Shown in pieces: positions 1,428-51,152 of a stretch of 64,000 nucleotides of DNA. The stretch's first letter is position 1. Every line of letters starts with the position of its first letter. The translations under genes were made by a program, and so were the position numbers. The stretch is taken from contig CAYNPS010000001.1 of the NCBI GenBank assembly GCA_964399125.1, positions 20,496-84,495 of the forward strand. Direction: 5' to 3'. The notes beneath the pieces were generated by a model, which worked only from the letters and a program-made list of their open reading frames with translations, made no database searches and was not told where the DNA came from. The DNA is from an uncultured Terriglobales bacterium (GTDB taxonomy: Bacteria; Acidobacteriota; Terriglobia; Terriglobales; Acidobacteriaceae).

Positions 1428-1444
1428 TTTTCTTCTCCAGCTTC

Positions 1445-2416: not shown

Positions 2417-2425
2417 AAGAAACTC

Positions 2426-3721
2426 TCAATTGGTGCTTCTGTGTGTTTCAAACATGCTGGCCGGCAGCCGAATACCGGCAACAAGTAGTCGCTCAGCGAA
2501 TTTGGGTCGAATACCCGTCGGCAAGAAATCGCCGACCACCCGTCCCTGTGGGTCGATGCCCTTCTTTTTGAAGGCGAAGATGTCTTGCATCGTGACCACA
2601 TTTCCTTCCATTCCCACAATCTCGGAGACAGCGACAACTTTTCTAGTGCCGTCGCTTAGTCGGCTCACCTGAACCACGACATCAAGTGCAGAGGCGATGT
2701 TTCTGCGAACAGCAGTGTCGGGTATGTTCAAATTGGCCATTGCTACCATTGTTTCCAAACGCGTCAAGGCATCACGAGTGCTATTCGCGTGAATCGTTGT
2801 TAACGAACCGTCATGGCCCGTGTTCATGGCCTGCAGCATGTCAAGAGCTTCTTCGCCCCGGACCTCGCCGATGATGATTCGGTCCGGACGCATACGAAGT
2901 GCGTTGATTACGAGATGGCGCTGGCGAACGTAACCTTTGCCCTCGATGTTCGGAGGTCTAGTTTCCAGGCGCACGACGTGCTCTTGCCTTAATTGCAACT
3001 CAGCGGCATCCTCGATCGTCACGATGCGTTCGCGATCTGAAATGAAAGACGAAAGGACATTTAATAATGTGGTCTTGCCGGCGCCCGTACCGCCAGAAAT
3101 AAGGAGGTTCAGCCTCGCCTGAACACATCCTTGAAGTAAATCCAGCATTTCTCGTGTGAGAGAGTTGTTCTCGATCATGTCCTGATCGTCGACTCGGTCA
3201 ATTCCGAAGCGGCGGATCGAGAGTGCCGGGCCATCGATTGCGAGCGGAGGAATGATGGCGTTAACGCGAGATCCATCGGGCAGGCGCGCGTCCACCATCG
3301 GTGAAGACTCGTCGATTCGGCGACCCACTCTGGACACGATGCGATCGATAATGCTCATGAGATGAGTATCATCGCGAAATTGAATATTAGTCTTTTCCAG
3401 GATTCCAGCGCGTTCGACGAACACATTGCGGCTCGTATTTACCAGGATGTCGGACACGGACGGATCTGCCAGTAAAGGCTCCAAAGGACCCAACCCGAAC
3501 ACCTCGTCTAATACTTCCTGCGACAGTCGTTCCCGCTCCCTGAGAGTCATGGGAGTTGATTCTCCCATCACCAGGCCTTCCACTAGTTGCGAGACCTCGC
3601 GACGAACCGCTTCGCGGTCAGCCGCGGTCAGACTCTCAAGATTCAACTTCTGGATGAGCTTGCGATGAATCGCGGCTTTTAGAGATGCAAAGTCAGACAG
3701 CGTCGCTCGAGGGGTTGCCAT
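2426..3721 (-). CDS. cpaF: Tad pilus secretion ATPase CpaF/TadA
   Basis: 431 aa. Walker A is [12 protein letters not shown], with [10 protein letters not shown] (Asp box), IIIGEVRG (Walker B) and a [12 protein letters not shown] His box. This is a typical CpaF/VirB11-like hexameric ATPase. Confidence 0.95.
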
Positions 3722-3723
3722 TA

Positions 3724-4896
3724 CTACTTGCCTCCAAGACGAAATAGACTCGTGAATCCGTTGTTTTTAGAACCTGTTTCGAGTTCTAAACCGAGTGTTT
3801 CTGCCGCCAATTGTTTGAATTTGGCGGCAACAAGATTATTGTGGTTACCAGAAACCGGCACGCCGATATTAACTGCTTCACTAACTCGAGTGAAGTCGTT
3901 TGGTATATAAGCGGAGATCGGCCGCTTAATGTTCTTCTCGACCGACCTTAGCGTCGCCTCATCGGCCCGATGCCAACGGTTAACAACTATGCGAATTTGG
4001 TCGGAATTGATACCGAAACCAGCAAGCGCGAAGAGCCGTCGTTCTAATGCCCATAGCGATGGGACGTTGGCTTCGGTGATGAGCATAATTAGTGACTGTC
4101 TAAGTACTGGCGCCCACTCTCCAGAAAACTGCGCTCCATAATCAATTACCACATTTGCATGACTGGTGCGCGCAACGTTGACAACTCGCGTCAGTGAGTG
4201 AACTGGCATTGATTGCCATTGTTCGAGCTGTGTCGCGCCGGTCAAAACCTGCAAGCAGCTGCCGTGGTGAGTTAATAGTCCATTGAAAAAGTGGCTGTCG
4301 AGCCTTTCCAGGTTCTCCACCGCATCTCGGATCCCGAACGAAGGCTTCAGATCAAGCAGAAGCTGTACCGCTCCCAGCGGAGCTGCCAAATCGAGAAGCG
4401 CAACAGAGTTCTTGCTGCTGCGTGCCATCTGCACTGCTAGATTCACGGCAATGGTTGTGGCTCCGACTCCGCCCTTCGAGCCCATGACCACAGTTACTTC
4501 ACCAGGCGGTTTGGATGTTGATGCCTGGAGTTCTTCCGATAAACGCGACAGCACTTCTGTCAACGAATTAAGATCGATAGGCTTCGGCAATACATCCTGA
4601 ACACCTGCTCGCATCGCACGCAACAGCAACTGCGAATCCTGCTGCGTCGAAGTGCACGCCAAAAGTCGAACGTTTGGCCGTTGCCGACGCAACGCCGCCG
4701 CAAGGTTCCAGAACCGATCCGCATCCCGCGGCAAATCCAAAAGAACCAGATCTGGAACCGCCTTCTGCCCGTCAGCAAACGGCTCCCGATCCAAGTCCCA
4801 CTGTTCAACCGCAGACACGAGGCCCGTCTGCTGCAACCGAGCTTGAAGTTGCGCGCTGCTATTGACGTCCGGACTTACAACTGCTGCCGTTAGCAT
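3724..4896 (-). CDS. cpaE: CpaE/TadZ: pseudo-receiver plus ParA/MinD-like ATPase
   Basis: 390 aa. The N-terminal receiver-like domain shows DLVLLDL and LPKPID. It is followed by a deviant Walker [17 protein letters not shown]. Position is between the secretin and cpaF. Confidence 0.9.
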
Positions 4897-4917
4897 CCGT
4901 GATATCCGTTGAGCTTA

Positions 4918-6423
4918 TTAGTTGGTCGTTTGGTCCGGTTTCGCGTTGCTGGCATGTTCTGGTGCTGCTGGCGCCATGAATTTCTTCGGGAAATACGGTC
5001 CCGTAGGCTCGTGCCCTGGCTCGTTCGGAGTCACAATCCGCGGCGTGACTACCACCAGAAGCTCACTTTTGCTCTTCGTTGACGCACGACTCTGAAACAG
5101 CTTGCCAAGCAGCGGAATATCACCAAGTCCAGGGATCTTCTCCAGAGTTTGAATCACTCTGTTATCGTCGAGTCCCGCGATCGCAAAACTCTGCCCATCC
5201 TTTAGATCCATTTCAGATTCAACCTTCCGGGTGGAAAGTGCAGGAATCACAAATCCGGAGATAGTCACAGAGTTGCTGTAATCAAGTGAGCTTACTTCGG
5301 GGGCAACCTTAAGATGTATGACTCCTTCTGGCGAAAGTGTCGGAAGGAACCTAAGCCGAACTCCGTATTCGCGAAATTGGATGGTAACGGTCGGCGCGGT
5401 TCCAGATGTTCCCTGTACAACGGGGTACGGAAACTCACCGCCGGCAAGGAAGCTTGCTTCTTTGCCCGTTACGGTCAAGAGGTTGGGCTCTGCCAATATC
5501 TGCAGCAGATTGCTTTGCTGCCAGTCTTTGATTGTCAACGCAAGGTTGATATCAGGACGGAATACGAAAATGTTCAGAATATCCGATAAGGAGTAGCCGC
5601 CGGTCGTTCCTCCTATGCCCTGGCCCTGGAGTTGCGGTGCTCCAAATTGCTGTGTCGAACTTGCTCCTACAAACTTATTGCCTGGCAACCCGAGGATATT
5701 AGCCCCAAGAGCGCTCACCTTCGTGCGGTCCACTTCCGCAAAGCGCACCTGTAAAAGGATCTCTCCAGTCATTCCCAGCGGGACCTGCATCAGGTTCACC
5801 ACTTTCGGCGATGCGGTCTTGGCGACTTCAAGGATCTTGTCAGCTATCGGCCCGGACGAAACTCGTCCTGAGAGTACGATCGAATCCTTCGAGGCCTCGA
5901 CTTTAACCGGTTCGTTGGGAAACACTTCCTTAACTTTTTGGCTCAAGCCCAGAATGTCCAGGTCCACAATGAGCTCAAAGGTCTGACTCTGATCGCGCTC
6001 ATCCCAGAGCACCAGTGACACGCCACCCGGAGCCTTCCCGTTAACGAGAACTTGCGTCGGGTTAATCACGACTGCGTCAGCAATCCCCGGATCTGCGACG
6101 GATACTCGCTTGATGCGCGCAGGAGATGTGATAACCAGCGAGCGGCCCACCAGCAAGTGGAGCGTAGTCTGGGCCTCGTTGTCCGCTCCAGTGAGCGGTT
6201 GTTGCTCGGCACGCGATTCAGGCGCCGGAGCATTCTGAGGCTGGGCGCCGTTCACCGCAGGTAACGAGGGCGATGAGGGTTTTACTTGCTGCGAGATGCC
6301 TGCAGCCGCATGTGACTCGACGATGCCCTGGGCAAATGAACCAAGCGTGCAAAAGAGAACCGTGAGGGCGACTGCGACCCCCGTGAAATTAGTTGTTCTG
6401 CGTATGGCCGTTGCTTTGCTCAT
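4918..6423 (-). CDS. cpaC: Tad secretin CpaC/RcpA
   Basis: 501 aa. It has a signal peptide, a pilus-formation N-domain (RIKRVSVADPGIADAVVINPTQVLVNGKAPGGVSLVLWD) and a C-terminal secretin block (IPGLGDIPLLGKLFQS...ELLVVVTPRIV). Confidence 0.93.
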   Translation of the reverse strand: MSKATAIRRTTNFTGVAVALTVLFCTLGSFAQGIVESHAAAGISQQVKPSSPSLPAVNGAQPQNAPAPESRAEQQPLTGADNEAQTTLHLLVGRSLVITSPARIKRVSVADPGIADAVVINPTQVLVNGKAPGGVSLVLWDERDQSQTFELIVDLDILGLSQKVKEVFPNEPVKVEASKDSIVLSGRVSSGPIADKILEVAKTASPKVVNLMQVPLGMTGEILLQVRFAEVDRTKVSALGANILGLPGNKFVGASSTQQFGAPQLQGQGIGGTTGGYSLSDILNIFVFRPDINLALTIKDWQQSNLLQILAEPNLLTVTGKEASFLAGGEFPYPVVQGTSGTAPTVTIQFREYGVRLRFLPTLSPEGVIHLKVAPEVSSLDYSNSVTISGFVIPALSTRKVESEMDLKDGQSFAIAGLDDNRVIQTLEKIPGLGDIPLLGKLFQSRASTKSKSELLVVVTPRIVTPNEPGHEPTGPYFPKKFMAPAAPEHASNAKPDQTTN

Positions 6424-6434
6424 TTCCTCTCCGG

Positions 6435-7271
6435 TTACGGATTCGGGAACGACTTACTATCGCGTTTACTTCCCACTATGATTTCCACAACAAAAGGAGC
6501 CGGAGCAGAGGGAACCGTGCGATGAGGGCCAGCATGTTTTGCAGGCTCCGGAGCTCCGCCGCCGAATAAAACTGCCTGAACCACTGGCGGAGGATTTACC
6601 TTCTCAGTGTCGATCGTGTTGCGTAGAGCCAACTGGATTCGTCCTTGGGTGGCGGCCATGGTCAGCTTATTGGCGTCCGGAGGTGTGACCAGAAGCGTAA
6701 TCACAGGCACATTCTGGGGCTTGCCATCTTTATCCTGCTCGACCTTTTGACCAGCTGCTAGAACGCGAACATCTTCAAGAACCGTCTTCGTGATGCTCCC
6801 GCCCTGATTCTGACCCGGCCCAGTGCCAGTTACCAACACGTCCACCATGGTTCCGGGGACCACGAATCCCGCCACTCCGATCACATCATTCACGGCGACC
6901 GTAAGCGCCCGCATTCCGTCAGGAATCGTGGCTGGCAGGCCGGCGCCGGCCCCAGTCGGCGCCAGCTTCGATTCCAGGATCGGCTCATTTTCTGTAACGG
7001 ACGTGATGAGCGTGCGCCCCTGCACATCCGTAAGGCTTCCGAACATTCCCGTCATCGGTTGATCGGCAGGCCAGTTCACAAGTCGAAGCTGTTCGGGGGC
7101 TAAACGAGTTCCCAGCGCGATTCGATCCGCCGCAACCACAATCTTGCGGATAGGGATAGCAACAGGTCCGGCATTCTGCCGCTTCAACTGGCGGTACACA
7201 TACATGCTCGTGAGCAGGCCGATAATCACGGCCACTGCTAACGCGAATATGAGCCGATTACGATTCATCAA
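6435..7271 (-). CDS. cpaB: Flp pilus assembly protein CpaB/RcpC (SAF domain)
   Basis: 278 aa. It has an N-terminal TM anchor and a SAF-like segment (VVAADRIALGTRLAPEQLRLVNWP). Position is conserved upstream of the secretin. Confidence 0.9.
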   Translation of the reverse strand: MMNRNRLIFALAVAVIIGLLTSMYVYRQLKRQNAGPVAIPIRKIVVAADRIALGTRLAPEQLRLVNWPADQPMTGMFGSLTDVQGRTLITSVTENEPILESKLAPTGAGAGLPATIPDGMRALTVAVNDVIGVAGFVVPGTMVDVLVTGTGPGQNQGGSITKTVLEDVRVLAAGQKVEQDKDGKPQNVPVITLLVTPPDANKLTMAATQGRIQLALRNTIDTEKVNPPPVVQAVLFGGGAPEPAKHAGPHRTVPSAPAPFVVEIIVGSKRDSKSFPNP

Positions 7272-7286: not shown

Positions 7287-7898
7287 TCAGAACCTTGCAT
7301 GAAAGCAAATAGCCGCTGTCAGAAAGCAAGCGAGAGTTGCACAAGCGGCGGCTACACCGAAAGGCAAACCGGTTGCGCCGGGACTGTCCAGTGTGACATG
7401 GGGGCGCTCCTTCCATCCAAGAACGGCCGCCACTTTGATCAGTATCCAGATATTGGAGAGGGTCTCCCGAATTCGTCGCTTCATCAGAACTTGAACGACT
7501 GCCATCGCACCGGCGATGAAGGTTGTCGCGAGCAATACAACCCAAGCCGGGGGTCCGAGAATTGCACCGAGCGCCCCCATTAGCTTCCAGTCCCCTGCCC
7601 CGAGACCGCGCAACAGCACGAAAGGCAGAAGAATGCCCAAGCACAGGCCCGCGCCCATCAAAGATAGTTTCAGACCTCGCCAGTGTCCAAATGTCGTATT
7701 AAGAGCGATTCCGAGAAATAGGCTGGACAGGGTCAGCCAGTTGGGAATTCGGCGTCCGCGAAGGTCCGTGATCCCGGCGATGAGTGCTACAACCAATGCA
7801 ATTGTCCAGATGATAAGCAACCGATCCCCTTGTGCCTGGCGTCCGTTCCTGCCGCGATAAACGAAGAGAATTCTGCGCGCGAAGCATAGCGCCAACAA
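7287..7898 (-). CDS. tadV: A24-family prepilin peptidase TadV/CpaA
   Basis: 203-aa polytopic ORF with two catalytic Asp contexts (ITDLRGRRIPN and GLGAGDWKLMGALG). It starts 4 nt after the flp-2 stop. Confidence 0.88.
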   Translation of the reverse strand: MLALCFARRILFVYRGRNGRQAQGDRLLIIWTIALVVALIAGITDLRGRRIPNWLTLSSLFLGIALNTTFGHWRGLKLSLMGAGLCLGILLPFVLLRGLGAGDWKLMGALGAILGPPAWVVLLATTFIAGAMAVVQVLMKRRIRETLSNIWILIKVAAVLGWKERPHVTLDSPGATGLPFGVAAACATLACFLTAAICFHARF

Positions 7899-7902: not shown

Positions 7903-8073
7903 CTACGAGCCCTTGATCTTGTCCGCGGCGGCGCTGAAAACAGTGTTGAACGAGATACCGAGGCTGGTCATCGTGGTCATAACCGCCAAAGCGATCAGCG
8001 CCATCAGCATCGCGTGCTCCACCAGGTCCTGACCTTCTTCTTCCCGCCACAGAACAGCCAAGATGTTCTTCAT
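7903..8073 (-). CDS. flp: Flp-family pilin, second paralog (56 aa)
   Basis: Below the ORF-track cutoff. ATG at 8073 has GGAG 8 nt upstream. It reads MKNILAVLWREEEGQDLVEHAMLMALIALAVMTTMTSLGISFNTVFSAAADKIKGS. It has a Flp leader and a G/xxxxE(H) processing motif followed by a hydrophobic helix. Confidence 0.8.
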   Translation of the reverse strand: MKNILAVLWREEEGQDLVEHAMLMALIALAVMTTMTSLGISFNTVFSAAADKIKGS

Positions 8074-8107
8074 GGACAACTCCGTTAGCGCGCGGCTTCT
8101 TGGTTAA

Positions 8108-8180: not shown

Positions 8181-8369
8181 CTATGTGGCGGCGTTGGCAA
8201 TATCCGAGTTGAGTGTATTTCCCACGGTGCCAAAGGCGTCATTGATCTGTTTAGCGAGGTTACCCATTCCGACAACGGCAGCCAGAGCCACCAATGCCAC
8301 GAGCAGGGCGTATTCGACGAGGTCCTGGCCTTCTTCTTCATGCCACAGACGTATCAAGATGTTCTTCAT
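8181..8369 (-). CDS. flp: Flp-family pilin, first paralog (62 aa), probable major pilin
   Basis: MKNILIRLWHEEEGQDLVEYALLVALVALAAVVGMGNLAKQINDAFGTVGNTLNSDIANAAT. It has the canonical Flp motif G/QDLVEY plus a hydrophobic helix. An AAGGAG Shine-Dalgarno lies upstream. Confidence 0.92.
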   Translation of the reverse strand: MKNILIRLWHEEEGQDLVEYALLVALVALAAVVGMGNLAKQINDAFGTVGNTLNSDIANAAT

Positions 8370-8423: not shown

Positions 8424-8439
8424 AGCACCTAGCGGACCA
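8424..8439 (-). promoter_or_regulatory. Candidate sigma-54 (-24/-12) promoter upstream of flp-1
   Basis: The minus strand reads TGGTCCGCTAGGTGCT against consensus TGGCACG-N4-TTGCW. GG and GC have the exact 10-nt spacing and 9 of 12 specified positions match. It lies 55-70 nt upstream of the flp-1 ATG. A sigma-54 EBP is encoded in the same locus (18737..20140). Confidence 0.3.
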
Positions 8440-8677: not shown

Positions 8678-10339
8678 CTAACTGGAAGGACAAGACAGAT
8701 CTTTTCTGACCATGAAGTAATAAACCGAAGGCTGGGGGTTCAGGAGCTTACAGAGTCGATAATTGCGGAGGATGTAATCACTTACCGGATCGGACGTTAC
8801 CGCTTCAAGGGGAGTTGAAGGCCAATTGCGAGCTACTCTCTCCGGGAAATTTGGGTCAATGAGTACGAACGGCGTTCGATCACTAGCCAATTCATGAACC
8901 ACCCATCTGTATTGCTCCGGTGTGTTCATACCTGGGAATAAGAACTGGTAAGACGTCGGGTTTGCAGTACCTGTGATGTAGGAATAGAACGGCTGGTATG
9001 GGTGAACGTAGACGTGCTCACCCTTTCCAAGCGCGGAACTGAGATACGCTGTGACTTGATCTTCTTGAGGGATCCGAACGTTTCCTCTGTACGTGTGGAG
9101 TTGGGGTAGCTTAAGCGGTGCGAGGAACGGCACCAACCCAAAACCACAAAATGAAAGCAGCAGGAAACCGCCAACAAGCGGCCTAATACTATCGAGAAAT
9201 TGTGTTTGGGGCGCCGGGAAATCGAAAATCGAAGGAAGCAGATACACGAATAACGGCGCTAAATACATCATGTGGCTTACATCCGCCCTTCCTGTCGCGA
9301 TTGCGGAAAGCCAGACCCCAAAGAAAATACAGCCCCCGAGTACCTGGTGATTAAACTCACATGACGTTTTCCAGAGGGCTCCGATCCGATAAGCGGTCGT
9401 AACAAGTACCATTACCGCCAAGGCAGGAATCAGCAGATAAGGCAATCTCAAAAACCCGAGCAGCAGCTTTTGCAGCGAAGGTCCCGACGCAAACATTGCG
9501 TGAATGCCAGTTCCAATCTGCGGTGCGAACCCATAGGGCACTCGATTGACAGAGGAATAGTGGTGGATAGGCCAGAACCACGCGGCCAGCATCGCGGAGA
9601 GTGCATGTTGAGAGGTGAAGTAGGCGAAGGTGAAGATCAATGGAAGGGCAGAGCCCGCCAGAACCCAACTGAGCTGAGCAAAAGAGAAGGAGCGGCGCCC
9701 CCGGTTTCGTAACAGCAAAGCAAGAACGGCAATCATTAACCCCAGCAGCAGTCCTGCGCCTTTTGATTGCTCAGTCAGGAACGTCAAGGACGCGGCAATA
9801 CCTAGGAGGAAGGCCCAACTGCGCTTAGGGGTATCCAGCAACCTGTGCGCACTGTAAACGGCAAACAGGGCATACAAAGAACTGTACCAATTGTGCAGTG
9901 AAAGGAATGCCGGAACTGCGCACTCAAGTACCAGCACGCACGCGGTTATCGATCCTGATCTCCCGGACATGCAACGTGCCAGTGAATACGTGATCGCTCC
10001 AAAGAGACCATATGTCACTAGGAGCACGCTTCGTGCGACCACAAGAGAATTACCGAACAATTTGAATGAGAGCGCAAGCAGGTAGTAGGATCCTGGTGTG
10101 AAGAACAGAAAAAAATCACGATAGGGCACCTGACCGTTCAAGATGCGCTGAGCACCGTCCAAGGTCATACCCTCATCGGCATCCAACGATGCGACGGGCA
10201 ATAGCGGAAAAAGGCAGATCACTATGGTGACGAAGACCATTATCGCGATCAGCAAATCGCGTCGAGATGGTTCGGAACGCGTTGGACGCGTTCCTGCGGC
10301 CTCTCTAGCCTGTTCGGACCTTGTTGCGCATTCAACCAT
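8678..10339 (-). CDS. Polytopic GT-C-type glycosyltransferase (family 39 / ArnT-PMT-like)
   Basis: 553 aa with many TM helices. The first extracytoplasmic loop carries SLDADEGMTLDGAQRILNGQVPYRDFFLFFTPGSYY, typical of PMT_2/ArnT-like enzymes. Confidence 0.7.
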   Translation of the reverse strand: MVECATRSEQAREAAGTRPTRSEPSRRDLLIAIMVFVTIVICLFPLLPVASLDADEGMTLDGAQRILNGQVPYRDFFLFFTPGSYYLLALSFKLFGNSLVVARSVLLVTYGLFGAITYSLARCMSGRSGSITACVLVLECAVPAFLSLHNWYSSLYALFAVYSAHRLLDTPKRSWAFLLGIAASLTFLTEQSKGAGLLLGLMIAVLALLLRNRGRRSFSFAQLSWVLAGSALPLIFTFAYFTSQHALSAMLAAWFWPIHHYSSVNRVPYGFAPQIGTGIHAMFASGPSLQKLLLGFLRLPYLLIPALAVMVLVTTAYRIGALWKTSCEFNHQVLGGCIFFGVWLSAIATGRADVSHMMYLAPLFVYLLPSIFDFPAPQTQFLDSIRPLVGGFLLLSFCGFGLVPFLAPLKLPQLHTYRGNVRIPQEDQVTAYLSSALGKGEHVYVHPYQPFYSYITGTANPTSYQFLFPGMNTPEQYRWVVHELASDRTPFVLIDPNFPERVARNWPSTPLEAVTSDPVSDYILRNYRLCKLLNPQPSVYYFMVRKDLSCPSS

Positions 10340-10345
10340 GGCGTC

Positions 10346-11050
10346 CTAAGGTTTATTAGCGGTTGTCGCGTGCTGTGCGCCTGCTGGACACCACTTGAGA
10401 ACTGGTTCAAACCGCCGCAACCACGAGAGCCAGCGTGGAAAAAACACGATGTAATCTGTCTTGGGTCGTGATCCTAGCGCTTGGAGACACAGTGAACGCA
10501 CCTCGCTTGAATGCAGCAGTACGACGCCTTCGTCGAACGGGCAATGTGATACTGCCCACCTGGTCACGGGATTCAAAGGATTATGTTCGAAAATCATGAT
10601 TCTTCCGCCGGGCGACAGTCGCGATGCGGCCTCCGCAACTACGGAGCGCCGCTCTTCTGGCGCAATGTGGTGTAGCACATTGGCGAGAACTACAACTTCG
10701 TAATTGGTTCCGAGTTCAGCGAGATCCGAGGTAAACACCCCTTGGGATCGCAACTCGGGATCAATCCGTTCGAGGCTGTTCGCCGATACATCGAAGCCGT
10801 CAACTTGCATTTTGGGGACGCGCCGCCTCAGGTAACGGGCCAAAATCCCGACGCCGCAGCCATAGTCGAGAATTCTGCCGTTGGCCCGCACTGTTGAGAG
10901 AACCCGCGCGAGGTATTTTGCCTTGTAATCCGCAAAATATTCGGAGTTTTCGCCAGTGATCTGAACGTTTTCATCTACCAGCTGGCGATAACCTTCGGCT
11001 ACTGAGTCAAACTGTGCCTCTTGCCGGCGAGTTGTCGTCTCACATGACAT
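10346..11050 (-). CDS. Class I SAM-dependent methyltransferase
   Basis: 234 aa. Motif I is ILDYGCGVGILARYL. A post-I acidic residue is present, along with VVLANVLHHI and GGRIMIFE blocks. Confidence 0.85.
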   Translation of the reverse strand: MSCETTTRRQEAQFDSVAEGYRQLVDENVQITGENSEYFADYKAKYLARVLSTVRANGRILDYGCGVGILARYLRRRVPKMQVDGFDVSANSLERIDPELRSQGVFTSDLAELGTNYEVVVLANVLHHIAPEERRSVVAEAASRLSPGGRIMIFEHNPLNPVTRWAVSHCPFDEGVVLLHSSEVRSLCLQALGSRPKTDYIVFFPRWLSWLRRFEPVLKWCPAGAQHATTANKP

Positions 11051-11097
11051 GGGCCTTCAGCTCCATTGGTACTTCCCTGGATCATCTTGCGTGACCG

Positions 11098-12081
11098 TTA
11101 TTTCTCCTGGCCGGCGGCACGAGCGAGAACAAGCGGCCGCTGCACGCTGTCAAAGCCGATCCGCTCACGAACCACATACAATGGGCGACGCTTCGATTCA
11201 CCGTAAATCCTGCCAATGTACTCTCCGATGATCCCCATGCAGATCAGTTGAACGCCACCGATGAACAGAACCGTGACCAGGATGCTAGCCCAACCTTTTA
11301 CCAGTCCGGGCATGCCGATCAGGTGCTCGATGACTGTAACCAGTATTCCCATTATTGCAAGCCCCGATGCGGCGAAACCAAGCCATGTAGCGATACGCAA
11401 CGGGATAATGGAAAATGAAAAGATTCCGTCGGCCGCGAACTTCAGCATCTTGAACAACGGATACTTGGTTACTCCCGCCGCTCGTGCAGCTCTGCGATAA
11501 GGAACTGCAACTGTTGAAAAGCCTAACCAGCTCACCATGCCGCGCATGAAACGATCACGCTCCGGCATGGCCAACAGCGCATCCACCACACGGCGGTCCA
11601 TCAAGCGGAAATCACCGGTGTCCAGCGGAATGTTTGTCTCCGAGAGCCTGTTGATGGAGTGATAGAACAGCTTGGCAGTCCAAAGCTTGAAAGGCGTCTC
11701 CCCGTCGCGTTCCGTCCGGAGCCCATACACGACGTCAAAGCCTTCCATCCATTTCGCGACGAAATCGGTGATGACCTCAGGCGGATCCTGCAAATCAGCA
11801 TCGATCACCACCACAGCGTCGCCCGCAGCGTTTTCGAGGCCTGCAGTGATGGCCATTTGGTGTCCAAAATTCCGCGAAAAACGAACCACCCGAATGCGAT
11901 GGTCCGCCTGTTGAAACTCCCGTAATATTTCCGGAGTTCTGTCCGTACTGCCATCGTCAACGTAGACGATTTCGAATTTGTACGGCAGCATCTCCAAGAG
12001 AGAAACGAGCCTGCGATTGCTACTGAGCAGCACGTCCTGTTCGTTAAAGCATGGCACAACCACGGAGATCAGTTCCGCCAT
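11098..12081 (-). CDS. GT2 polyprenyl-phosphate sugar synthase (Dpm1/ArnC/GtrB-like)
   Basis: 327 aa. Motifs seen: ISVVVPCFNE, VYVDDGSTDRT, NFGHQMAITAGL and VVIDADLQDPPE, plus two C-terminal TM helices. This is the architecture of ArnC/GtrB-type enzymes. Confidence 0.85.
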   Translation of the reverse strand: MAELISVVVPCFNEQDVLLSSNRRLVSLLEMLPYKFEIVYVDDGSTDRTPEILREFQQADHRIRVVRFSRNFGHQMAITAGLENAAGDAVVVIDADLQDPPEVITDFVAKWMEGFDVVYGLRTERDGETPFKLWTAKLFYHSINRLSETNIPLDTGDFRLMDRRVVDALLAMPERDRFMRGMVSWLGFSTVAVPYRRAARAAGVTKYPLFKMLKFAADGIFSFSIIPLRIATWLGFAASGLAIMGILVTVIEHLIGMPGLVKGWASILVTVLFIGGVQLICMGIIGEYIGRIYGESKRRPLYVVRERIGFDSVQRPLVLARAAGQEK

Positions 12082-12083
12082 GA

Positions 12084-13748
12084 CTACCTCCCCTGTGCAC
12101 GAAGATTGTTATCCTGCGGAATGAGCGCATTCGCCATGGGAGCCCCGCTCAAGCCGGCGTGTTGCCCACCGTCCCTCCTCACAAACAAGGAACTGATATC
12201 ATCCGAATAAACTCGCTCCCAGTTTGGAAGCGAAGCAAGAACTACTGAAAGCGGCTCGTTGCGGTGAACCATGCAGGTACGAATTTGATATGCATTTAGT
12301 ACCTGCACCGCCCCGGTTTCCAGCCTCGTGATCCGCATGTAATCGGGAAATACGCCGACTTCCTCGAACATCTCTCCACGTCCATCGACAAACGTTTTAT
12401 ATCCCGAACCAATCAGGTAACCGCCGAAAGTGTAGGTATTGAAGAGGGGTCCGGGAAGTGGATGCTGGCGCATGTAATTCAAAGCATGTACCGGAAAGTG
12501 TTTCGCCACCTTCTCTTGTAAAGCGGCCTTCGACGGAAAGTAGTGAACCATTCCGAACAGGATTGCTGTCATCAGGACAAAGTTGAGCAGGTATTTGTCT
12601 TTGGACCTGTTGTACAAAGGTATCCACGGTGCGGCGACCGCGGCCAGGAGTGGCGCAAAAAACGGCACAAACAGGAGCAAGAAACGTACGTGCAAGCATG
12701 CCATACCGATGCCGCCGAACAAGAGCATCGCCTCCGCAAGATGCAGTTGAAATCGAAATGCCATTTGCGCTAGGAAAAACCCCAGCACGAAAAAAAGAAA
12801 GATCTTGCCGAAGCACTCATTGAACGACATTGGAAGCCATTCGATGACGCTTGCAATTGCCACTGGATACTTCGAGGCAACTTTGAACGGATATGCGGCG
12901 AGTTCACTTCCGTATGGCGTAATCGGAATCGCAGCGAGAGAGAGCATCAAAACGGTTTCGAGTTGTAACCGCTGGGAACTCATCCAGCGTCGGGCCTCCA
13001 GGCTTCCCGACTGGAACTCAAACAGGCCGCAGACGAGGTACGCGGCAATTACGCCAAGCCCGATGACCCACGATCCGTGCGTATTGATCCAGATCAGCAG
13101 CAGTGGTGGAAGGAACCATATAGCGCGTTGCTTTCCTTGCCGGAAGCGCTCGAGCGCGATGAGCGTCAGGACGAGAAAGAGGTAGCCGAGCATTTGCGGT
13201 CGCAGATTGAACGACACCCACGTGATCGGGAGCAGTGTAGCCGCCGCGACAAATCCTGCCTTTGAGTTCCGCGAACGCAGCGTCGCGAATGCGTAGATCG
13301 CCAGGACCACTGCGCTGGCCATCGCAAGATTGACTGCATGCAGACCTTGCAGTCCCTTCCACCGATAAATAGCAGCAAGGAAGACATCACCAAGCCATTC
13401 GCACGCGATCCATGGCGCGTGAAAGGATGTGTACGAGTACGGATCCGTCGTTGGCCATTTATGAGTCGAGAGGATCAGTTCTCCGGTTCTAAGGTGCCAC
13501 CAGAGATCTGGATCAACCTTGAACGCTAGCAAGGCCCTGGAAAGAACTGCCACCAACAGCGCGCCGAGCAGCACTGGAAACGAGACCGCCTGCTTTGCGA
13601 GTTCCCACAACAATTTTCCAGTCGCAGCAGTAGCTTCTAGCTCGCCTGAACCCGGTGCCTCGGCGGTTATAACCCCCACTCCATCGCTACTTCGCACCGG
13701 CAAACACCCCGATGTCGCCGTCGCATCTATTGTATTGGCGTTACTCAT
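12084..13748 (-). CDS. Polytopic membrane protein, GT-C-like putative glycosyltransferase
   Basis: 554 aa with more than 10 predicted TM helices. An acidic first-loop motif, KVDPDLWWHLRTGELILSTHKWPTTDPYSY, is present. The gene is separated by 2 nt from the GT2 gene. The family assignment is an inference. Confidence 0.55.
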   Translation of the reverse strand: MSNANTIDATATSGCLPVRSSDGVGVITAEAPGSGELEATAATGKLLWELAKQAVSFPVLLGALLVAVLSRALLAFKVDPDLWWHLRTGELILSTHKWPTTDPYSYTSFHAPWIACEWLGDVFLAAIYRWKGLQGLHAVNLAMASAVVLAIYAFATLRSRNSKAGFVAAATLLPITWVSFNLRPQMLGYLFLVLTLIALERFRQGKQRAIWFLPPLLLIWINTHGSWVIGLGVIAAYLVCGLFEFQSGSLEARRWMSSQRLQLETVLMLSLAAIPITPYGSELAAYPFKVASKYPVAIASVIEWLPMSFNECFGKIFLFFVLGFFLAQMAFRFQLHLAEAMLLFGGIGMACLHVRFLLLFVPFFAPLLAAVAAPWIPLYNRSKDKYLLNFVLMTAILFGMVHYFPSKAALQEKVAKHFPVHALNYMRQHPLPGPLFNTYTFGGYLIGSGYKTFVDGRGEMFEEVGVFPDYMRITRLETGAVQVLNAYQIRTCMVHRNEPLSVVLASLPNWERVYSDDISSLFVRRDGGQHAGLSGAPMANALIPQDNNLRAQGR

Positions 13749-13802: not shown

Positions 13803-14258
13803 TTGCAGGTATCCATGCGCGTCGAATTCAAGCCTTCGTTCCTGATCGCGTTCGTCGTCCTGTCGGCCACTGTCGCAGTCTCCTTCGGACTGGAGCGCGG
13901 TTTGCTTGCCGGCGCTGTCCTAACTGCCTGTCTTTACTTACACGAGGCAGGCCATGCCATGATGTCGCTTCGCCGCAGCGTGCGAGTTACTGCCATTGGC
14001 CTCTCCGTGAAAGGCGGTTATACCGTCCGCGCCGACTCCGGCGATTGGGTCACAGAGGCTCAATCTGCAATTTCCGGTCCACTTGTGAATTTGCTGCTGG
14101 CCTGGATGTTCACCAGGATTGGGGGAGTCTACTGGCGCTGGCTCGGCACTGCCAATTTGGTGCTTGGCGTGAGCAACCTGATTCCCTTCCGCGGATCGGA
14201 TGGATGGCGCCTGTGGAGGGCGCTGCTTAGCCCGGTCACCCGTCCGAAGGAAAGTTAA
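13803..14258 (+). CDS. Small M50 (site-2 protease-like) membrane metalloprotease
   Basis: 151 aa. HEAGH sits in a TM helix, with NLIPFRGSDGWRL as the third-ligand motif (NxxPxxxxDG). It is the only plus-strand gene in the first 23 kb. Confidence 0.7.
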   Translation: MQVSMRVEFKPSFLIAFVVLSATVAVSFGLERGLLAGAVLTACLYLHEAGHAMMSLRRSVRVTAIGLSVKGGYTVRADSGDWVTEAQSAISGPLVNLLLAWMFTRIGGVYWRWLGTANLVLGVSNLIPFRGSDGWRLWRALLSPVTRPKES

Positions 14259-14300: not shown

Positions 14301-14837
14301 CTAGTGAGCAATGATCATGTCGGAAGTGCTCGATAGGGTGATGCCATTCCTCGAGACGAATGGGAACAGAAACTGGAAGTCATAGCTTACCTGCACGTGG
14401 ACGGTACAGCCGGGATAGTTGTAAGTTGTGCCGCAGAGAGTCGGGCTCGTCGACTGAACAGGCCAGGTCACGCTGGTGCTGAGGCAGCCTGATCCACCGC
14501 ATCCCGTACTGCTGCTGTTAATACCATTAGGCGCGATGCTACTTACGTAACTGCCTATGCAGGCGGAGGTGGCGTAATCAGCGCAATGGCTGTCATTCCA
14601 GCAACTCGCAATACCATCAGTATCATTCTTGCATGTTGAACCGCGAACTGCCGCATACCGACTGGCTTCACGCGCTGCGTTAGAGACGAAGTGATATGCA
14701 TAGACTGCGCGACTGAACTCGGTAATGCCTAACATCATGGTTAGCAACAGGAAACTCACTAGCGCAAATTCCACAAGCGTGCTGCCGGTTTGCTGGCTGT
14801 TCTGAGAATCTTTCCGGGATAATGATGTGATCGTCAT
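14301..14837 (-). CDS. tadE: TadE/TadF-like pseudopilin
   Basis: 178 aa. The N-terminus QQTGSTLVEFALVSFLLLTMMLGITEFSRAVYAYH is a TadE-like domain with a G/xxxxE processing motif. It overlaps the upstream tadE-like gene by 4 nt. Confidence 0.85.
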   Translation of the reverse strand: MTITSLSRKDSQNSQQTGSTLVEFALVSFLLLTMMLGITEFSRAVYAYHFVSNAAREASRYAAVRGSTCKNDTDGIASCWNDSHCADYATSACIGSYVSSIAPNGINSSSTGCGGSGCLSTSVTWPVQSTSPTLCGTTYNYPGCTVHVQVSYDFQFLFPFVSRNGITLSSTSDMIIAH

Positions 14838-15370
14838 TGCTGAATCACTCTCATAGTGGAACTTCTGGAGATAGTGATGGTTCTGGGTACGCCCGGGAAT
14901 CTGAACAATGAGTCAAACGTGCCGGACGCATTCACCGTCAACATAACTACCCAGTTCGCCCCTCCGGTGCAGGTGCCGGCCGTTGTGGTTCCGTTACAAA
15001 CTTGCGAAGTTATGGTGCCGCCACTGTCGCATCCGCAGGACGCAGAAGAGGTAACCGTGATTTGCCCACCTGCCGTACATGCGTTCGTGTCTCCCTCGAA
15101 ATCGAGGCTCGCGGCATCACAAATGCCAGTCGTGTTAACTGAAAGCGGAAGACTCTGACTACCGTAAGCAGCCCCTGCGCGCGCGGCATTTCCAACCTTA
15201 ATCCCTAGGTACGCGAAACGGCCCATCTCGACCGCCCCAATTGCGAGTGCGAGTAATAACGGCGCAACGAGGGCAACTTCAACCAAGCTCTGACCCGACT
15301 GTGAAAAGCGTTTTGCAACGGTCCTGGCGCTGCCCTGACGAAGGCTGAACGTAAAGTTTGTTGCTCTCAT
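14834..15370 (-). CDS. tadE: TadE/TadF-like pseudopilin
   Basis: 178 aa. SQSGQSLVEVALVAPLLLALAIGAVEMGRFAY is a TadE-like N-terminus. Confidence 0.85.
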   Translation of the reverse strand: MRATNFTFSLRQGSARTVAKRFSQSGQSLVEVALVAPLLLALAIGAVEMGRFAYLGIKVGNAARAGAAYGSQSLPLSVNTTGICDAASLDFEGDTNACTAGGQITVTSSASCGCDSGGTITSQVCNGTTTAGTCTGGANWVVMLTVNASGTFDSLFRFPGVPRTITISRSSTMRVIQQ

Positions 15371-15373: not shown

Positions 15374-16696
15374 TTACTCCACCAAGATCGCATTCGAGAA
15401 CAAGGAAACACCGGCTGGCAACCCCGCCGAGCCTTGCAGGTTGACAGTCGGATTGCCACTCAGTGCGAGCGATTGCGCGACCACGACGGCAACACTGAAG
15501 CTGGTATTGTTCCCAAAAAAGGTAATCTGGTCACTTGGGAAGTATAAGGCGCCGTCATAGAAGCTCGCGCTATCCCCTCCCATGGTGGGGCCGTTCGGAT
15601 TGGGACCAACGTTAGTATCTGCAGGATCCTGGTACATTAGGATGCCAGCGTACGTTCCGGAACTCGGCGCTGTCAGTTTAACGTCAGGCGTGCCCGTCAT
15701 ATTCACTGTGGCTGTGCCGGTGAAATAGAAAGTGACGCCTGTCCCAGAAATGCTTGAAGTGCCGTCAACGTTTAAACCACCAGAACCGCTGATGTAGTAC
15801 AGGCCAGGGGCAAACGTCACATTTGAATTCTTACCGACATTTATCGAGTCATAAGCGCCCGGTTGCAGTGTCTGAGCCCCTTTTGCTGTCGAAACATTGC
15901 ACGCCCCATTAGCGGGACAACTTGAGGAAGCAGCAGGCTTGCTCGGAGGTGTCACTTTGGCGAGGGGGTCGCCGGAGGACGGCATTCCAGTGGCGGGGCA
16001 TGGACCAATTTGATCGGTACACGTAACCGTACCTCCGGGTCCGCTGGAAACCACTGATCCTGCGGTGCCAAAAGTCGCGGTATTCACGATGAGCTTGTTT
16101 CCCTTCGTGTTGAAATTCCCGTTATCGACAATTCCGCACGTCGTGGCATTCAGAACTGCACTGCCATTAATGTTAACGCCCTCGATGCTATCGGTCGGTT
16201 GCCCCAGTGTGTATAAACACCCGCTGTTCGGTCCACCACCGGTCACGTTCGTTGCAACGGCACGTGCAGTGAAGGTCGTCTTGTTGATACCAAGTACCTT
16301 CATGAAGTACGTGGTATTGACCTTCGCTACGAGGGCCTCCACGTACTTGCTCTTACCCGCGTGCGGTCCACTAGTGGGGGGATTGTTTACCTGCACACAT
16401 ACAGTTCCGACCGATGCAGAGGTCGTACAGTTTGAAATCGCATTGCCGCCGCTATCGCTGAATCCATTCGACGCGGCCGCATTGTATCCAGACGCCTGAA
16501 CACCGCTGCCAAATGCGAGGTCCTGCGCCGCGGCAGTAGCTGCGGAATCCGCTGCGGTCTGCTGCAGACGCTTTTCATAACGCATTACACCGGCATCAAT
16601 CGCCAAACCTACAACGGCCGTGAGAGCGACCAGTCCAGTCGCAGTAAGCACCAAAGCTTGGCCTGCTTCTTTTCTGTTTCGAATTCTGCGTATCAT
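15374..16696 (-). CDS. tadG: TadG-like pilus-associated protein
   Basis: The ORF track gives 15374..16774. I prefer the ATG at 16696, which has GGAGG 5 nt upstream. The N-terminus MIRRIRNRKEAGQALVLTATGLVALTAVVGLAIDAGVMRYEKRLQ is a TadG-type domain. The rest is rich in G/T/S/N and looks beta-helix-like. Confidence 0.8.
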   Translation of the reverse strand: MIRRIRNRKEAGQALVLTATGLVALTAVVGLAIDAGVMRYEKRLQQTAADSAATAAAQDLAFGSGVQASGYNAAASNGFSDSGGNAISNCTTSASVGTVCVQVNNPPTSGPHAGKSKYVEALVAKVNTTYFMKVLGINKTTFTARAVATNVTGGGPNSGCLYTLGQPTDSIEGVNINGSAVLNATTCGIVDNGNFNTKGNKLIVNTATFGTAGSVVSSGPGGTVTCTDQIGPCPATGMPSSGDPLAKVTPPSKPAASSSCPANGACNVSTAKGAQTLQPGAYDSINVGKNSNVTFAPGLYYISGSGGLNVDGTSSISGTGVTFYFTGTATVNMTGTPDVKLTAPSSGTYAGILMYQDPADTNVGPNPNGPTMGGDSASFYDGALYFPSDQITFFGNNTSFSVAVVVAQSLALSGNPTVNLQGSAGLPAGVSLFSNAILVE

Positions 16697-16867
16697 CGCG
16701 ACCTCCACCTCTTCTGGGGCCCTAATAGAACATCTAACCTGTAGGGGGACGGGAGCTCCGAGCCGAAAGTCCAACGAGAGTTCCGGTAATTTAGCTGGAT
16801 TCTGAACACCTTACAAGCCCTACTTCAAGTTAATCGTTAACCAAACATCACCCGAACTGCCCTACGC

Positions 16868-17776
16868 CTATGCTCTCAACCCGGCAAACTCCGGTAAAAC
16901 CTCGAACTGAGCTCTAACCGATGGCAAGCTTTCGCCGATCTGCTGAATCTTGCTCTCCGCCACATGACCCAGTAGATAAGCGGCTTTGCGCAAATACTTG
17001 ATTCGCTCCGGAACCAACCCCATCAGTCGTGTGCAGGTTGCATCCACGGCAACCGGATCCCTGCCGAACACTAGCACGCCGCAGTGGCGCGGAGTTCCCT
17101 GCGACGGGCCATTCCCTTCCATGCCGACGATGCCGTCCACAATTGCGAAATCGGGTCCGACCGTGCTGTTCAGGTCGAGAATCGCCTCATCAATGCCGGC
17201 CCAGTGCAGCACGTTCTTTGGCCATCCATAGCAACCGCCCGGTACTACGCCGAACATGTTTTTGAGTGACAATGTGACTCCGGCCCAGTGATGCGTTTTC
17301 AGCTTGGCGATTGAAACGACAAAATCTGCCCTCAATAATGTCTTCGGGAAACAAAGTTCACGCAGCCGCGACGCATGTGTTTTCAGCTGCACCTTTTGAA
17401 CGTCATCGAGGTTCAAATCGGCAAAGAACTTTGATGGATCGCCAAGAAAATTGCGGAACCGAACCGATTCCAACACCGCTTGTGCGTCGCGCTCGAGAGC
17501 CGGTCCGTCCCCTATCATGACTGACTTTGCACCCAGTCGTCGAAACGCTTCGCGCGCGCCTTCTATGACCACAGGATGCGTATTGATGAAGCCGCCAGGA
17601 TCAAAAGCGACAAGGTTCGGCTTCAGCAAAACATCCTTGTCGCGGACGTCCAGTTTGAACTGTTGCAGCGTCTCGAAGATGAGCGAGGCCATGTCCTCGG
17701 CGTAGCTGGCCACCTTTCGAATAGCGACCGGCGAAGCTGGGCGCGAAAAACTCGGCTGTAAGTTTGCGCTCCTCAT
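16868..17776 (-). CDS. DUF362 domain protein
   Basis: The track ORF is 16868..17845. The ATG at 17776 overlaps the upstream stop in an ATGA arrangement. Motifs VLLKPNLV...THP, KLKTHHWAGVTLSLKNMFGVVPG and VDGIVGMEGNGP match DUF362. Confidence 0.75.
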   Translation of the reverse strand: MRSANLQPSFSRPASPVAIRKVASYAEDMASLIFETLQQFKLDVRDKDVLLKPNLVAFDPGGFINTHPVVIEGAREAFRRLGAKSVMIGDGPALERDAQAVLESVRFRNFLGDPSKFFADLNLDDVQKVQLKTHASRLRELCFPKTLLRADFVVSIAKLKTHHWAGVTLSLKNMFGVVPGGCYGWPKNVLHWAGIDEAILDLNSTVGPDFAIVDGIVGMEGNGPSQGTPRHCGVLVFGRDPVAVDATCTRLMGLVPERIKYLRKAAYLLGHVAESKIQQIGESLPSVRAQFEVLPEFAGLRA

Positions 17777-18747
17777 AGCAACATCTTCCCGGCTTGCAGT
17801 GATGGCAACCAGTTCACACCGGGCCTCGCCGCCATGATCCTCCACACGCTTACCAGTGTCTCCTGTCCCGCCTGCTCTTTCCGGTCGACTTCACTAACCA
17901 GATCCGAATAGGGCCAATCGTGCGCTGCTAGACAAAACTCCGCTATTGCTCTCGACTTTTCCCCGCGAATCCGGGCTGCCGAGGATGCTAGCCATCGCAA
18001 ACTTGCGTCACGTTCAGTGTCGGCCTGCGGACTCCACAGTAAGGCGAGGAGCGCCAGGCAAGTCATATCCACATTTGGATTGCCGGGCACTCCATAGACC
18101 ATTGGGTTACCGCTATTCCATCCACCACCCGAACACATGCGATCCTTCAACATCGCTTCTGCCAACCTGCGTCGTTTTGCAAAGCTCCTCGGCAACAAAC
18201 CCGATGGGAGATTGCGCAAAGCAATTAAGGCGCAGGCCGTAGGTTCTACCCAGCTACTCGTACCAGGTGTCCAAGTCCAACCCCGGTAAGCGCTATTCTG
18301 CTTTGAGACCGACGCTTTTCGTCGCAGCCTCTCGACAAACCGCCACCAGAATCCGCCAGCCTTCGGCCACGCGTCGCAAAGATATCCAGCAGCATGCCGA
18401 ATTAGGTGCGCCGGGCCGTTCGCCTGCTGAACCGCCAAACACGCTACGGCCGTGACCCATGCACCCTGCGTCTGCTGCGGTGCCGCCGGCCACGATCCAT
18501 CTTCAATCTGCGCGCTCACCAGATACTGCAACGCTCTCTCGCGCGCATTCACCACGTTGGGCGACCCCTGACATTGCAGGAGCGCGAGCAGTGCCCAACT
18601 GCTCGGTTCGACCCGGCTCTCCAAGCCTCCGTAATAGCCCCAGCCGCCATCTACGTTCTGCCGCCGCAACAGTAGCGCAACGTGACGCTCGGAGCTTCGA
18701 CTCTCGCTGGCTATACCATTATCTACAACTTCTTTCTCAAGCATCAT
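17773..18747 (-). CDS. Prenyltransferase / squalene-oxidase-repeat (alpha/alpha-barrel) protein
   Basis: The track ORF runs to 18786. ATG ATG at 18747/18744 overlaps the EBP stop. Repeated (D/E)GGWG / DGSW / GGGWN motifs are spaced about 50 aa apart, as in terpene-cyclase/prenyltransferase beta-subunit repeats. No signal peptide is present. Confidence 0.65.
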   Translation of the reverse strand: MMLEKEVVDNGIASESRSSERHVALLLRRQNVDGGWGYYGGLESRVEPSSWALLALLQCQGSPNVVNARERALQYLVSAQIEDGSWPAAPQQTQGAWVTAVACLAVQQANGPAHLIRHAAGYLCDAWPKAGGFWWRFVERLRRKASVSKQNSAYRGWTWTPGTSSWVEPTACALIALRNLPSGLLPRSFAKRRRLAEAMLKDRMCSGGGWNSGNPMVYGVPGNPNVDMTCLALLALLWSPQADTERDASLRWLASSAARIRGEKSRAIAEFCLAAHDWPYSDLVSEVDRKEQAGQETLVSVWRIMAARPGVNWLPSLQAGKMLL

Positions 18748-31054: not shown

Positions 31055-31804
31055 TCAGCCGCGCAGCTTCCGGTACATATTTCTCATTACCCCGACAGCG
31101 CCTAAACCCGCGCCGATCAACTGGAAGGTGGCCGGTTCTGGCACTGGTGTAGTCGGAACACCGGGGACATCAACACCGGGAGTGGTACTAAACGAGAACG
31201 TAGCACTGGTAATCCTCGTATCGCTGTTGATCGCAGAGTCGGTGATCGTGAAAGTCGCCGTCTGGTTCAAGAATGGATTGTGAGGACCGTTGCCGTCAAT
31301 CGATCCATTTGCATTGGAATAGGTGGCTCCGCCGGGAGGACCGATGATGGTCTCGGACGGATTTGCAGTGACTGGATCGTAGAAGCTGGCGGAAGAACAG
31401 ATCACACACAGGATATATGACTTCGCGCCCGTGCTGCCAAAACCCCAGCCGGTACTAGCGGCGGTGCTTGCGAGCGTGAAGCTTCCATTCGTGTTGACAG
31501 TAACCTGCTGCGCGGAGCTGGTAAATCCGGGGGTACCGGTGAGGCCGAGATTGAGCGTGAACTGTAGGTCACTAAGCAGTTGCCCAGCATCCTTCGGATT
31601 AGCGAGCAAATCTTGCAGTGTAATCTGCAACTGGCCCGCGCTGACGGTGAAGGTCGCATCTGCGCTCACCGGTCCAGCGGAGGTCGAGCTGCCGCTTGGG
31701 GTTGAATAGGTGATAGTGGAAGCGGAAAGGCTCGCGGTAAGAGAGAGAAAAAAAGCAACTCCCACACCAACCAGCCGTCGTTTGAGATCTAGCTTGCTAA
31801 TCAT
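31055..31804 (-). CDS. PEP-CTERM sorting-domain protein
   Basis: 249 aa with a signal peptide. The C-terminus is TPVPEPATFQLIGAGLGAVGVMRNMYRKLRG: a PEP motif, a TM helix and a basic tail. Confidence 0.88.
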   Translation of the reverse strand: MISKLDLKRRLVGVGVAFFLSLTASLSASTITYSTPSGSSTSAGPVSADATFTVSAGQLQITLQDLLANPKDAGQLLSDLQFTLNLGLTGTPGFTSSAQQVTVNTNGSFTLASTAASTGWGFGSTGAKSYILCVICSSASFYDPVTANPSETIIGPPGGATYSNANGSIDGNGPHNPFLNQTATFTITDSAINSDTRITSATFSFSTTPGVDVPGVPTTPVPEPATFQLIGAGLGAVGVMRNMYRKLRG

Positions 31805-33153: not shown

Positions 33154-33164
33154 ACGCGAACCCA

Positions 33165-51138: not shown

Positions 51139-51152
51139 ACGTCTTTTGCGTG

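Follow-up and report, generated by a model that had tools for sequence, protein, structure and literature searches.

This analysis concerns a Tad pilus locus in a 64,000-nucleotide stretch of DNA, hereafter the window, from an uncultured Terriglobales bacterium of the phylum Acidobacteriota (assembly GCA_964399125.1, contig CAYNPS010000001.1, positions 20,496 to 84,495 of the forward strand). Embedded in the locus are four genes that we propose to act in glycosylation of the pilus. All four open reading frames are on the minus strand, with successive gaps of 2, 47 and 6 nt. The first, F1 (12084–13748), encodes a polytopic membrane protein of 554 residues. It belongs to an unannotated family resembling the GT-C glycosyltransferases, is a conserved component linked to the flp pilin genes and is a putative pilin glycosyltransferase. 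F1 is followed by GT2 (11098–12081), which encodes a GtrB-type polyprenyl-phosphate sugar synthase of 327 residues, with a cytoplasmic GT-A domain and a C-terminal transmembrane hairpin. Next is MT (10346–11050), the gene for a soluble class I S-adenosylmethionine-dependent methyltransferase of 234 residues. The fourth gene (8678–10339) codes for a 553-residue PMT_2-like protein of the ArnT/PMT/STT3 fold class, a variable second GT-C. The coordinates and gaps are exactly those given in an earlier reading of this DNA by a model (the original prediction). The four are real genes and not chance reading frames, since GT2, MT and the PMT_2-like protein match Pfam families and both large proteins have hundreds of homologues.

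Downstream of the cassette, on the same strand, are two genes for Flp pilins. The first, flp1 (8181–8369, Flp_Fap match with an E-value of 2e-8), encodes the putative acceptor, whose mature tail ends in NSDIANAAT. The second, flp2 (7903–8079), is 48–50% identical to flp1 and its product ends in KIKGS; its Flp_Fap match has an E-value of 1e-4, which is under the gathering score. A sigma-54-type promoter element, TGGTCCGCTAGGTGCT, can be read directly in the sequence 70 nt upstream of flp1 (8424–8439, minus strand). The tadV prepilin peptidase gene follows (7287–7898, minus strand, Peptidase_A24 with an E-value of 1e-16), and then the Tad core (507–7271, minus strand), made up of rcpC, the secretin gene rcpA, tadZ (with receiver and ParA domains), the ATPase gene tadA, tadB and tadC, with Pfam matches to RcpC, Secretin, CbiA/Response_reg, T2SSE and, twice, T2SSF. 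On the other side of the cassette, upstream of F1 and again on the minus strand, are pseudopilin genes: the tadE-like pair tadE and tadE' (14301–14837 and 14834–15370), both matching Pfam TadE, and tadG-like (15374–16774, Pfam Tad). The Tad locus is thus complete in one cluster, with Pfam matches for flp, tadV, rcpC, rcpA, tadZ, tadA, tadB, tadC and tadE/G, and these flanks confirm the original placement of the cassette between the pseudopilin module and the flp genes.

The F1 protein has no match in Pfam or NCBIfam, and single-sequence and profile searches gave no sequence match in the Protein Data Bank (PDB). Pfam scans of 80 members of its family likewise gave no meaningful match and no GT-C family. 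The family is a large one: a library clustered at 50% identity holds 11,452 of its representatives when searched at E ≤ 1e-10. When the profile of 80 diverse F1 members is aligned to the PMT_2-like family with hhalign, a probability of 94% and an E-value of 1.4e-7 are obtained over 389 co-linear columns, while reversed and block-shuffled controls give probabilities of 0.7–24%. In this alignment D81 of F1 falls on D55, the loop-1 aspartate of the PMT_2-like family. The acidic motif that the original prediction had noted in the first outside loop of F1, KVDPDLWWH, is present and conserved, with D79, D81, W83, W84 and H85 invariant in the F1 alignment. D81, N222 and H224 are invariant across the 80 diverse members, down to 25% identity, and belong to a set of polar loop residues, completed by R183, E117, D455 and R457, that are all invariant or nearly so. 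F1 is, by remote homology and outside any curated family, very probably a divergent GT-C enzyme. The earlier assignment of the 554-residue protein to this class is supported by profile–profile comparison, and not by a match to any Pfam or NCBIfam family.

The match of the PMT_2-like protein to Pfam PMT_2 (PF13231) is marginal, at 28.2 bits against a cut-off of 26.1; most of its homologues carry a precomputed PF13231 match. It has about ten or more hydrophobic segments and a basic amino-terminus (six Lys or Arg in 28 residues), and in the first outside loop D55 and E56 are nearly invariant and G57 is invariant. No NCBIfam model is matched, and sequence and profile searches of PDB chains gave nothing meaningful. 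The AlphaFold2 model is a confident one (pLDDT 80, pTM 0.82), and in a Foldseek search of the PDB the top 26 matches are all GT-C enzymes, with ArnT first (PDB entry 5f15, E-value 2e-6, TM-score 0.52–0.55) and STT3, AglB, DPY19, PglB, ALG12, AftA and Pmt4 among the others. Judged by its predicted fold, the protein is a GT-C enzyme, and the profile and structure comparisons both agree with the original description of a polytopic GT-C with an acidic loop motif. Four homologues with 44–51% identity were looked up, and all four are encoded in Tad loci; in two of these the PMT_2-like gene is on the strand opposite flp and the F1-like gene.

GT2 matches PF00535 with an E-value of 2e-38. Its residues 5–311 align over the full length to residues 28–333 of Synechocystis GtrB (PDB entry 5EKP), with an E-value of 3e-91 and 309 bits; the motif IDADLQDPPE is identical in the two proteins and the alignment covers the C-terminal membrane hairpin, which corresponds to two hydrophobic segments in GT2. 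The similarity to ArnC is clearly weaker (E-value about 1e-47, about 165 bits). On the NCBIfam models for PgfS and ArnC, GT2 scores 298 bits (cut-off 500) and 176 bits (cut-off 529), respectively; as both scores are under the equivalog level, its sugar specificity cannot be named. From its sequence, GT2 is a GtrB-type polyprenyl-phosphate glycosyltransferase, as the Dpm1/ArnC/GtrB architecture seen in the original prediction had implied. The MT protein, also correctly recognised there, matches Methyltransf_23, 25, 12 and 11 and contains no transmembrane segment.

The gene order was compared in 80 loci of F1 relatives, one genome per species, with 33–65% identity to the F1 protein of the window, onto which the window proteins were mapped. 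All of them except L013 and L064 are labelled as Acidobacteriota or one of its subgroups. L013 and L064 show the same F1-flp-tad synteny in metagenome-assembled genomes labelled as Dormibacterota and Verrucomicrobiia, which probably reflects mis-binning rather than transfer. In 69 of the 80 loci a flp gene is no more than 5.3 kb away from F1, and in 67 of these 69 it lies downstream of F1 on the same strand and is followed by tadV-rcpC-rcpA-tadZ-tadA-tadB-tadC. At least five of the remaining 11 loci are too short in flank to show flp, and four more distant loci with full flanks contain large clusters of GT-C genes by which flp is probably displaced beyond this distance, as in L008. Divergent arrangements of F1 and flp are found in L081, L083 and L091, so that the adjacency survives flips of orientation as well as changes in the intervening genes. 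The original prediction had left it to the relatives to show whether the cassette travels with lipopolysaccharide or lipid A genes or with tad genes, and it is the tad/flp synteny that is found.

What lies between F1 and flp differs from locus to locus. No recognised gene is present in 24 loci, among which F1 is 215–460 nt from flp in about 11 and an unrecognised gene of about 2 kb fills the interval in about 10. GT2 alone is found in 13 loci, GT2 with MT in 13, GT2 with GT87 in seven and a PMT_2-like gene in three; the rest contain F1 paralogues or other combinations. In two cases the slot is occupied by other large genes: a 623-residue polytopic protein without a Pfam match in L039 (8983–10854) and a 725-residue membrane protein with a spermidine-synthase-like domain in L053 (11613–13790), which suggests that this hot-spot recruits other membrane enzymes too. 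The exact gene combination of the window was not seen elsewhere among the sampled loci. The nearest relative, with an F1 that is 71% identical, has the order F1-GT2-MT-flp and no second GT-C. F1 is a conserved component of the Tad locus, while GT2, MT and the second GT-C make up a variable island. The original idea of a four-gene cassette wedged into the Tad locus has to be changed accordingly: F1 is the conserved resident beside flp throughout the clade and the other three are variable extras. A single mobile cassette of all four genes was rejected, given that the nearest relative lacks the PMT_2-like gene and that the intervening content differs among loci.

The methyltransferase gene is found only where GT2 is present, in 21 of 42 loci with GT2 and in none of 27 without it (Fisher p 2e-6, ignoring phylogeny), which ties MT to the lipid-linked sugar pathway. 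For the same reason, a role of MT as the N-terminal methylase of the pilin was rejected.

The tails of the Flp pilins were compared in 124 distinct mature sequences, taken from those 69 species-representative loci in which flp is close to F1; the flp1 and flp2 of the window are not part of the set. The great majority, 109 of 124 (88%), end in Thr or Ser, and these two residues make up 33% of the last ten positions against 15% elsewhere; in the window, flp1 ends in Thr and flp2 in Ser. An N-x-S/T sequon is present in 64% of the tails and in neither tail of the window, and N-glycosylation at such sequons was rejected as the general mode for this reason. Three loci contain extra flp-like genes whose products have long C-terminal extensions, rich in Gly, Ser and Asn and reaching about 60 residues, unlike the short pilins encoded beside F1. 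In L041 (3140–3301) and L063 (458–616) they are on the other strand, past the sigma-54 activator, and in L064 (17277–17429) the gene is a third tandem flp copy.

A sigma-54-type element of the form TGG-N9-TGCW is located about 50–120 nt, mostly 65–85 nt, upstream of the first flp in most of the related loci (L001–L088), while second flp copies mostly lack it. The signal is informative only in this relaxed, position-anchored test across loci; a scan of the window with the strict sigma-54 consensus showed no enrichment, with 33 matches against 36.8 expected. The element fits the presence of a conserved sigma-54 activator at the locus boundary, and its position upstream of flp gives the major pilin a separate promoter, located past the glycosylation genes in the direction of transcription.

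We think it reasonably probable that these genes provide a lipid-linked glycosylation system dedicated to the Tad pilus, which acts in the periplasm with the Flp pilin as its acceptor. The GtrB-type GT2 would use a nucleotide sugar to load polyprenyl phosphate with a sugar at the cytoplasmic face of the membrane, and the soluble methyltransferase would probably methylate that sugar or its precursor. The lipid-linked sugar would then be flipped across the membrane by a flippase from outside the cassette. F1, with its predicted catalytic aspartate in loop 1, would attach it to the C-terminal tail of Flp, which is rich in Ser and Thr and forms the surface, before or during assembly of the filament. 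The PMT_2-like GT-C, in whose place many relatives have a GT87 enzyme, might add a further sugar or serve a second site. In this mechanism F1 would be the conserved core and the F1-flp interval a glycan-diversifying island. Flp is proposed as the partner because it is the constant neighbour of F1, while only 19 of 75 related loci have pseudopilin genes in the 3 kb upstream of F1. The original interpretation is thus partly supported, as far as genomics reaches, and refined to a conserved F1 with a variable island beside it.

Several points weigh against this reading. The choice of Flp as the acceptor comes from gene position only, and the cassette contains no flippase gene. The AlphaFold2 model of F1 is poor (pLDDT 50, pTM 0.44), having been made from a shallow alignment of 30 sequences at least 55% identical, and although its top Foldseek matches, STT3, Pmt1/2 and ArnT, are all GT-C enzymes, their E-values of 0.017–3 are not significant and the matches are suggestive only. 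About 27 loci have F1 without an adjacent GT2, and since there is none, the donor in such loci must come from an unlinked synthase. With a sigma-54-type promoter of its own, flp does not require co-transcription with the cassette. The Ser/Thr composition of the tails was obtained from F1-linked Flp alone, with no outgroup tails beside it (a tblastn search of plasmids with flp1 for such tails gave no match), and gives weak support. The 80 loci come from one phylum, and part of the synteny may reflect shared ancestry. In the Caulobacter Tad pilus, no glycan density is seen. Lastly, distant F1 members occur in clusters for envelope glycans that contain no tad genes. In Thermincola ferriacetica, a Firmicute (L089, 8520–16269), a 27%-identical member is accompanied by an F1 paralogue, LPG_synthase_TM, a GT2, an LtaS-like sulfatase and GT87, and in an Anaerolineae genome a member adjoins GT87, PMT_2 and AlgX-like genes. 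The F1 family is, because of these two, not intrinsically pilus-specific. They do support, at the level of sequence and gene context, F1 as a glycan-handling enzyme, and their position in glycan clusters suggests that Tad loci acquired one branch of a wider family. A further distant member is arranged divergently with respect to two flp genes.

The same enzymes could instead glycosylate another part of the Tad machine, such as the TadE/TadG minor pilins, the secretin or RcpC. In the window and in some relatives, F1 comes after tadG-tadE-tadE on the same strand and with short gaps, TadG and TadE are rich in Ser, Thr and Gly, and the cassette is upstream of the flp promoter unit and so outside it. 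However, pseudopilin genes accompany F1 within 3 kb in the 19 of 75 loci already mentioned, compared with an adjacent flp in 69 of 80, and many loci have F1 215–460 nt from flp with nothing in between. We regard a non-Flp acceptor of this kind as unlikely.

Slightly less probable again is that the acceptor is not a protein, and that the genes build or decorate a glycolipid or polysaccharide adhesin associated with the Tad pilus, or modify an envelope polymer near it. Lipoglycans are the targets of GT-C enzymes such as those of the GT87/Emb/PimE type, and the distant F1 homologues of Thermincola and the Anaerolineae are in glycan clusters, both of which would fit. The cassette, however, has no polymerase, chain-length or export genes, and in its smallest conserved form it consists of F1 only, next to flp. 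The window also has a separate Wzx/GT4 polysaccharide cluster. This cluster (45455–63393) contains GT4 enzymes, a Wzx-type flippase, two methyltransferases, hexapeptide acyltransferases and GT2 enzymes, and its presence sets the glycosylation genes of the Tad locus apart from the main machinery for exopolysaccharide.

It is improbable that F1 is not an enzyme at all but a membrane protein, descended from a GT-C ancestor, which serves in assembly or anchoring of the Tad machine of acidobacteria, with only the accessory genes glycosylating. Such a role would account for the many loci in which F1 is alone beside flp without a donor synthase, and F1 has neither a curated family nor a confident model. 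However, D81 and the other polar loop residues are invariant or nearly so down to 25% identity, as expected of a catalytic site, and the relatives of F1 that are not in Tad loci are located in glycan clusters. A lipid A or lipopolysaccharide modification set of the ArnC/ArnT kind, in the Tad locus by accident, is just as improbable and was rejected: GT2 does reach 176 bits against the model for ArnC, and the PMT_2-like protein has ArnT as its best structural match and homologues that source databases name 'Ara4N transferase-like', but GT2 is much closer to GtrB and far under the ArnC equivalog cut-off, no arnA/B/D/E/F-like or lipid A genes are present in the cassette or its flanks, and the synteny with flp and the tad genes is kept in 69 of 80 genomes through many rearrangements.

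Glycosylation of Flp by a pilin-linked GT-C has parallels in known systems. In streptococci, GtrB with PgtC2 and the Pgf operon (PgfS, a GT-A; PgfE, an epimerase; PgfM1 and PgfM2, both GT-C) O-glycosylate Ser/Thr-rich extracytoplasmic regions (PMC12041528). These are the closest working analogues, as they too combine a polyprenyl-phosphate sugar synthase of the GtrB/PgfS type with a GT-C acting outside the cytoplasm on exposed Ser/Thr-rich segments. Like the Pgf operon, the window has one GT-A and two GT-C enzymes, and its GT2 scores 298 bits on the PgfS model. Unlike the streptococcal systems, the host of the window is a Gram-negative acidobacterium, a methyltransferase takes the place of the Pgf epimerase and neither GT-C matches NCBIfam; moreover, the genes are in a pilus locus, and the implied acceptor is a pilin of 42–48 residues instead of the disordered regions of membrane proteins.

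In Pseudomonas aeruginosa, TfpW is a GT-C encoded beside pilA which arabinosylates the type IVa pilin (bioRxiv 10.1101/2020.04.19.049825). The likeness to the genes of the window is one of gene position and architecture: a gene beside that of the major pilin, a periplasmic loop 1, a large C-terminal periplasmic domain and a lipid-linked donor. The pilus here is of the Tad/type IVc and not the type IVa kind, and the putative donor synthase is GtrB-like, whereas TfpW relies on the DprE1/2 pathway to D-Araf. The ending of most Flp tails in Thr or Ser recalls the glycosylation of a C-terminal serine by TfpO/PilO. TfpO itself is of the Wzy_C class and not a GT-C.

In the glucosylation of O-antigen by GtrA/GtrB/GtrV and the modification of lipid A by ArnC/ArnT, as in the mechanism proposed here, the polyprenyl-phosphate sugar that a GT2 makes is transferred by a GT-C on the periplasmic side; among solved structures GtrB is the nearest homologue of GT2, and ArnT the top fold match of the PMT_2-like protein. 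The set in the window differs by having no GtrA or ArnE/F flippase and no arn genes, and by its partners, which are flp and tad and not O-antigen or lipid A genes. Archaeal pilins and archaellins are also N-glycosylated by a GT-C enzyme, the STT3-type AglB, which is not known to be linked to pilin genes in genomes. The likeness consists in a GT-C acting on pilins and in the presence of N-x-S/T in 64% of the Flp tails; the two tails of the window lack it, and a WWDYG motif was not recognised in F1. For Tad pili, an origin from archaeal type IV pili has been proposed (PMC10710030).

For Tad pili themselves, Flp1 of Aggregatibacter actinomycetemcomitans has been reported to be glycosylated (PMC6182317), and RcpC has been implicated in this modification. 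A literature search found no described dedicated Flp glycosyltransferase and nothing on Acidobacteriota, in line with the original remark that no defined module of this kind was known for Tad/Flp pili. What may be new here, judged against these analogues, is that a known kind of glycosylation, by a pilin-linked GT-C with a lipid-linked donor, is applied to Tad/Flp pili and involves an unannotated GT-C family.

The surroundings of the cassette are in part conserved as well. Beyond the pseudopilin genes, all on the minus strand and identified by Pfam, are the genes for a DUF362 protein (16868–17845), a squalene-hopene-cyclase-like (alpha/alpha toroid) protein (17773–18786) and the sigma-54 activator (18737–20140) that marks the locus boundary. 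The order of these three is the same in most related loci; the DUF362 and squalene-hopene-cyclase-like pair is kept between the sigma-54 activator and the F1 or pseudopilin genes in most of them and is gone from a subset. Between tadE and F1, on the plus strand, an open reading frame (13803–14258) encodes an M50-like mini-metalloprotease of 151 residues with an HEAGH motif. The contig of the nearest relative carries a 155-residue counterpart, and none of the 80 genome loci has one. Just outside the Tad locus there are genes for a PilZ-TonB_C fusion protein (21724–23100) and a GGDEF diguanylate cyclase (25165–26016). Relatives, too, have PilZ/TonB_C genes close to the locus (L005), which hints at control by cyclic di-GMP. 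The window further contains three PEP-CTERM proteins (31055–35243); PEP-CTERM proteins and the names given to homologues of its proteins assign the window to Acidobacteriota (Terriglobia, 'Acidiferrales').

Many bacteria use Tad/Flp pili to adhere and to form biofilms, and modification of Flp has long been reported without a known enzyme. If Flp is the acceptor, the enzymes described here would be the first defined for Flp glycosylation, and the Tad pili of a dominant soil phylum would be glycosylated filaments. The conserved, pilin-linked F1 gene offers a concrete candidate enzyme and a genomic marker for predicting glycosylated Tad pili, and a likely role can be assigned to a large family of uncharacterised membrane proteins. 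More tentatively, we propose that F1 founds an unannotated GT-C family which in Acidobacteriota provides the core, dedicated Flp glycosyltransferase, with the F1-flp slot as a hypervariable island of glycan diversification that would give each lineage its own sugar coat on the pilus. The variable island suggests that the surface glycans of pili are being diversified in soil Acidobacteriota, possibly driven by phage, predators or surface chemistry, in a way comparable to what glycosylation islands for pilin and flagellin do in pathogens.

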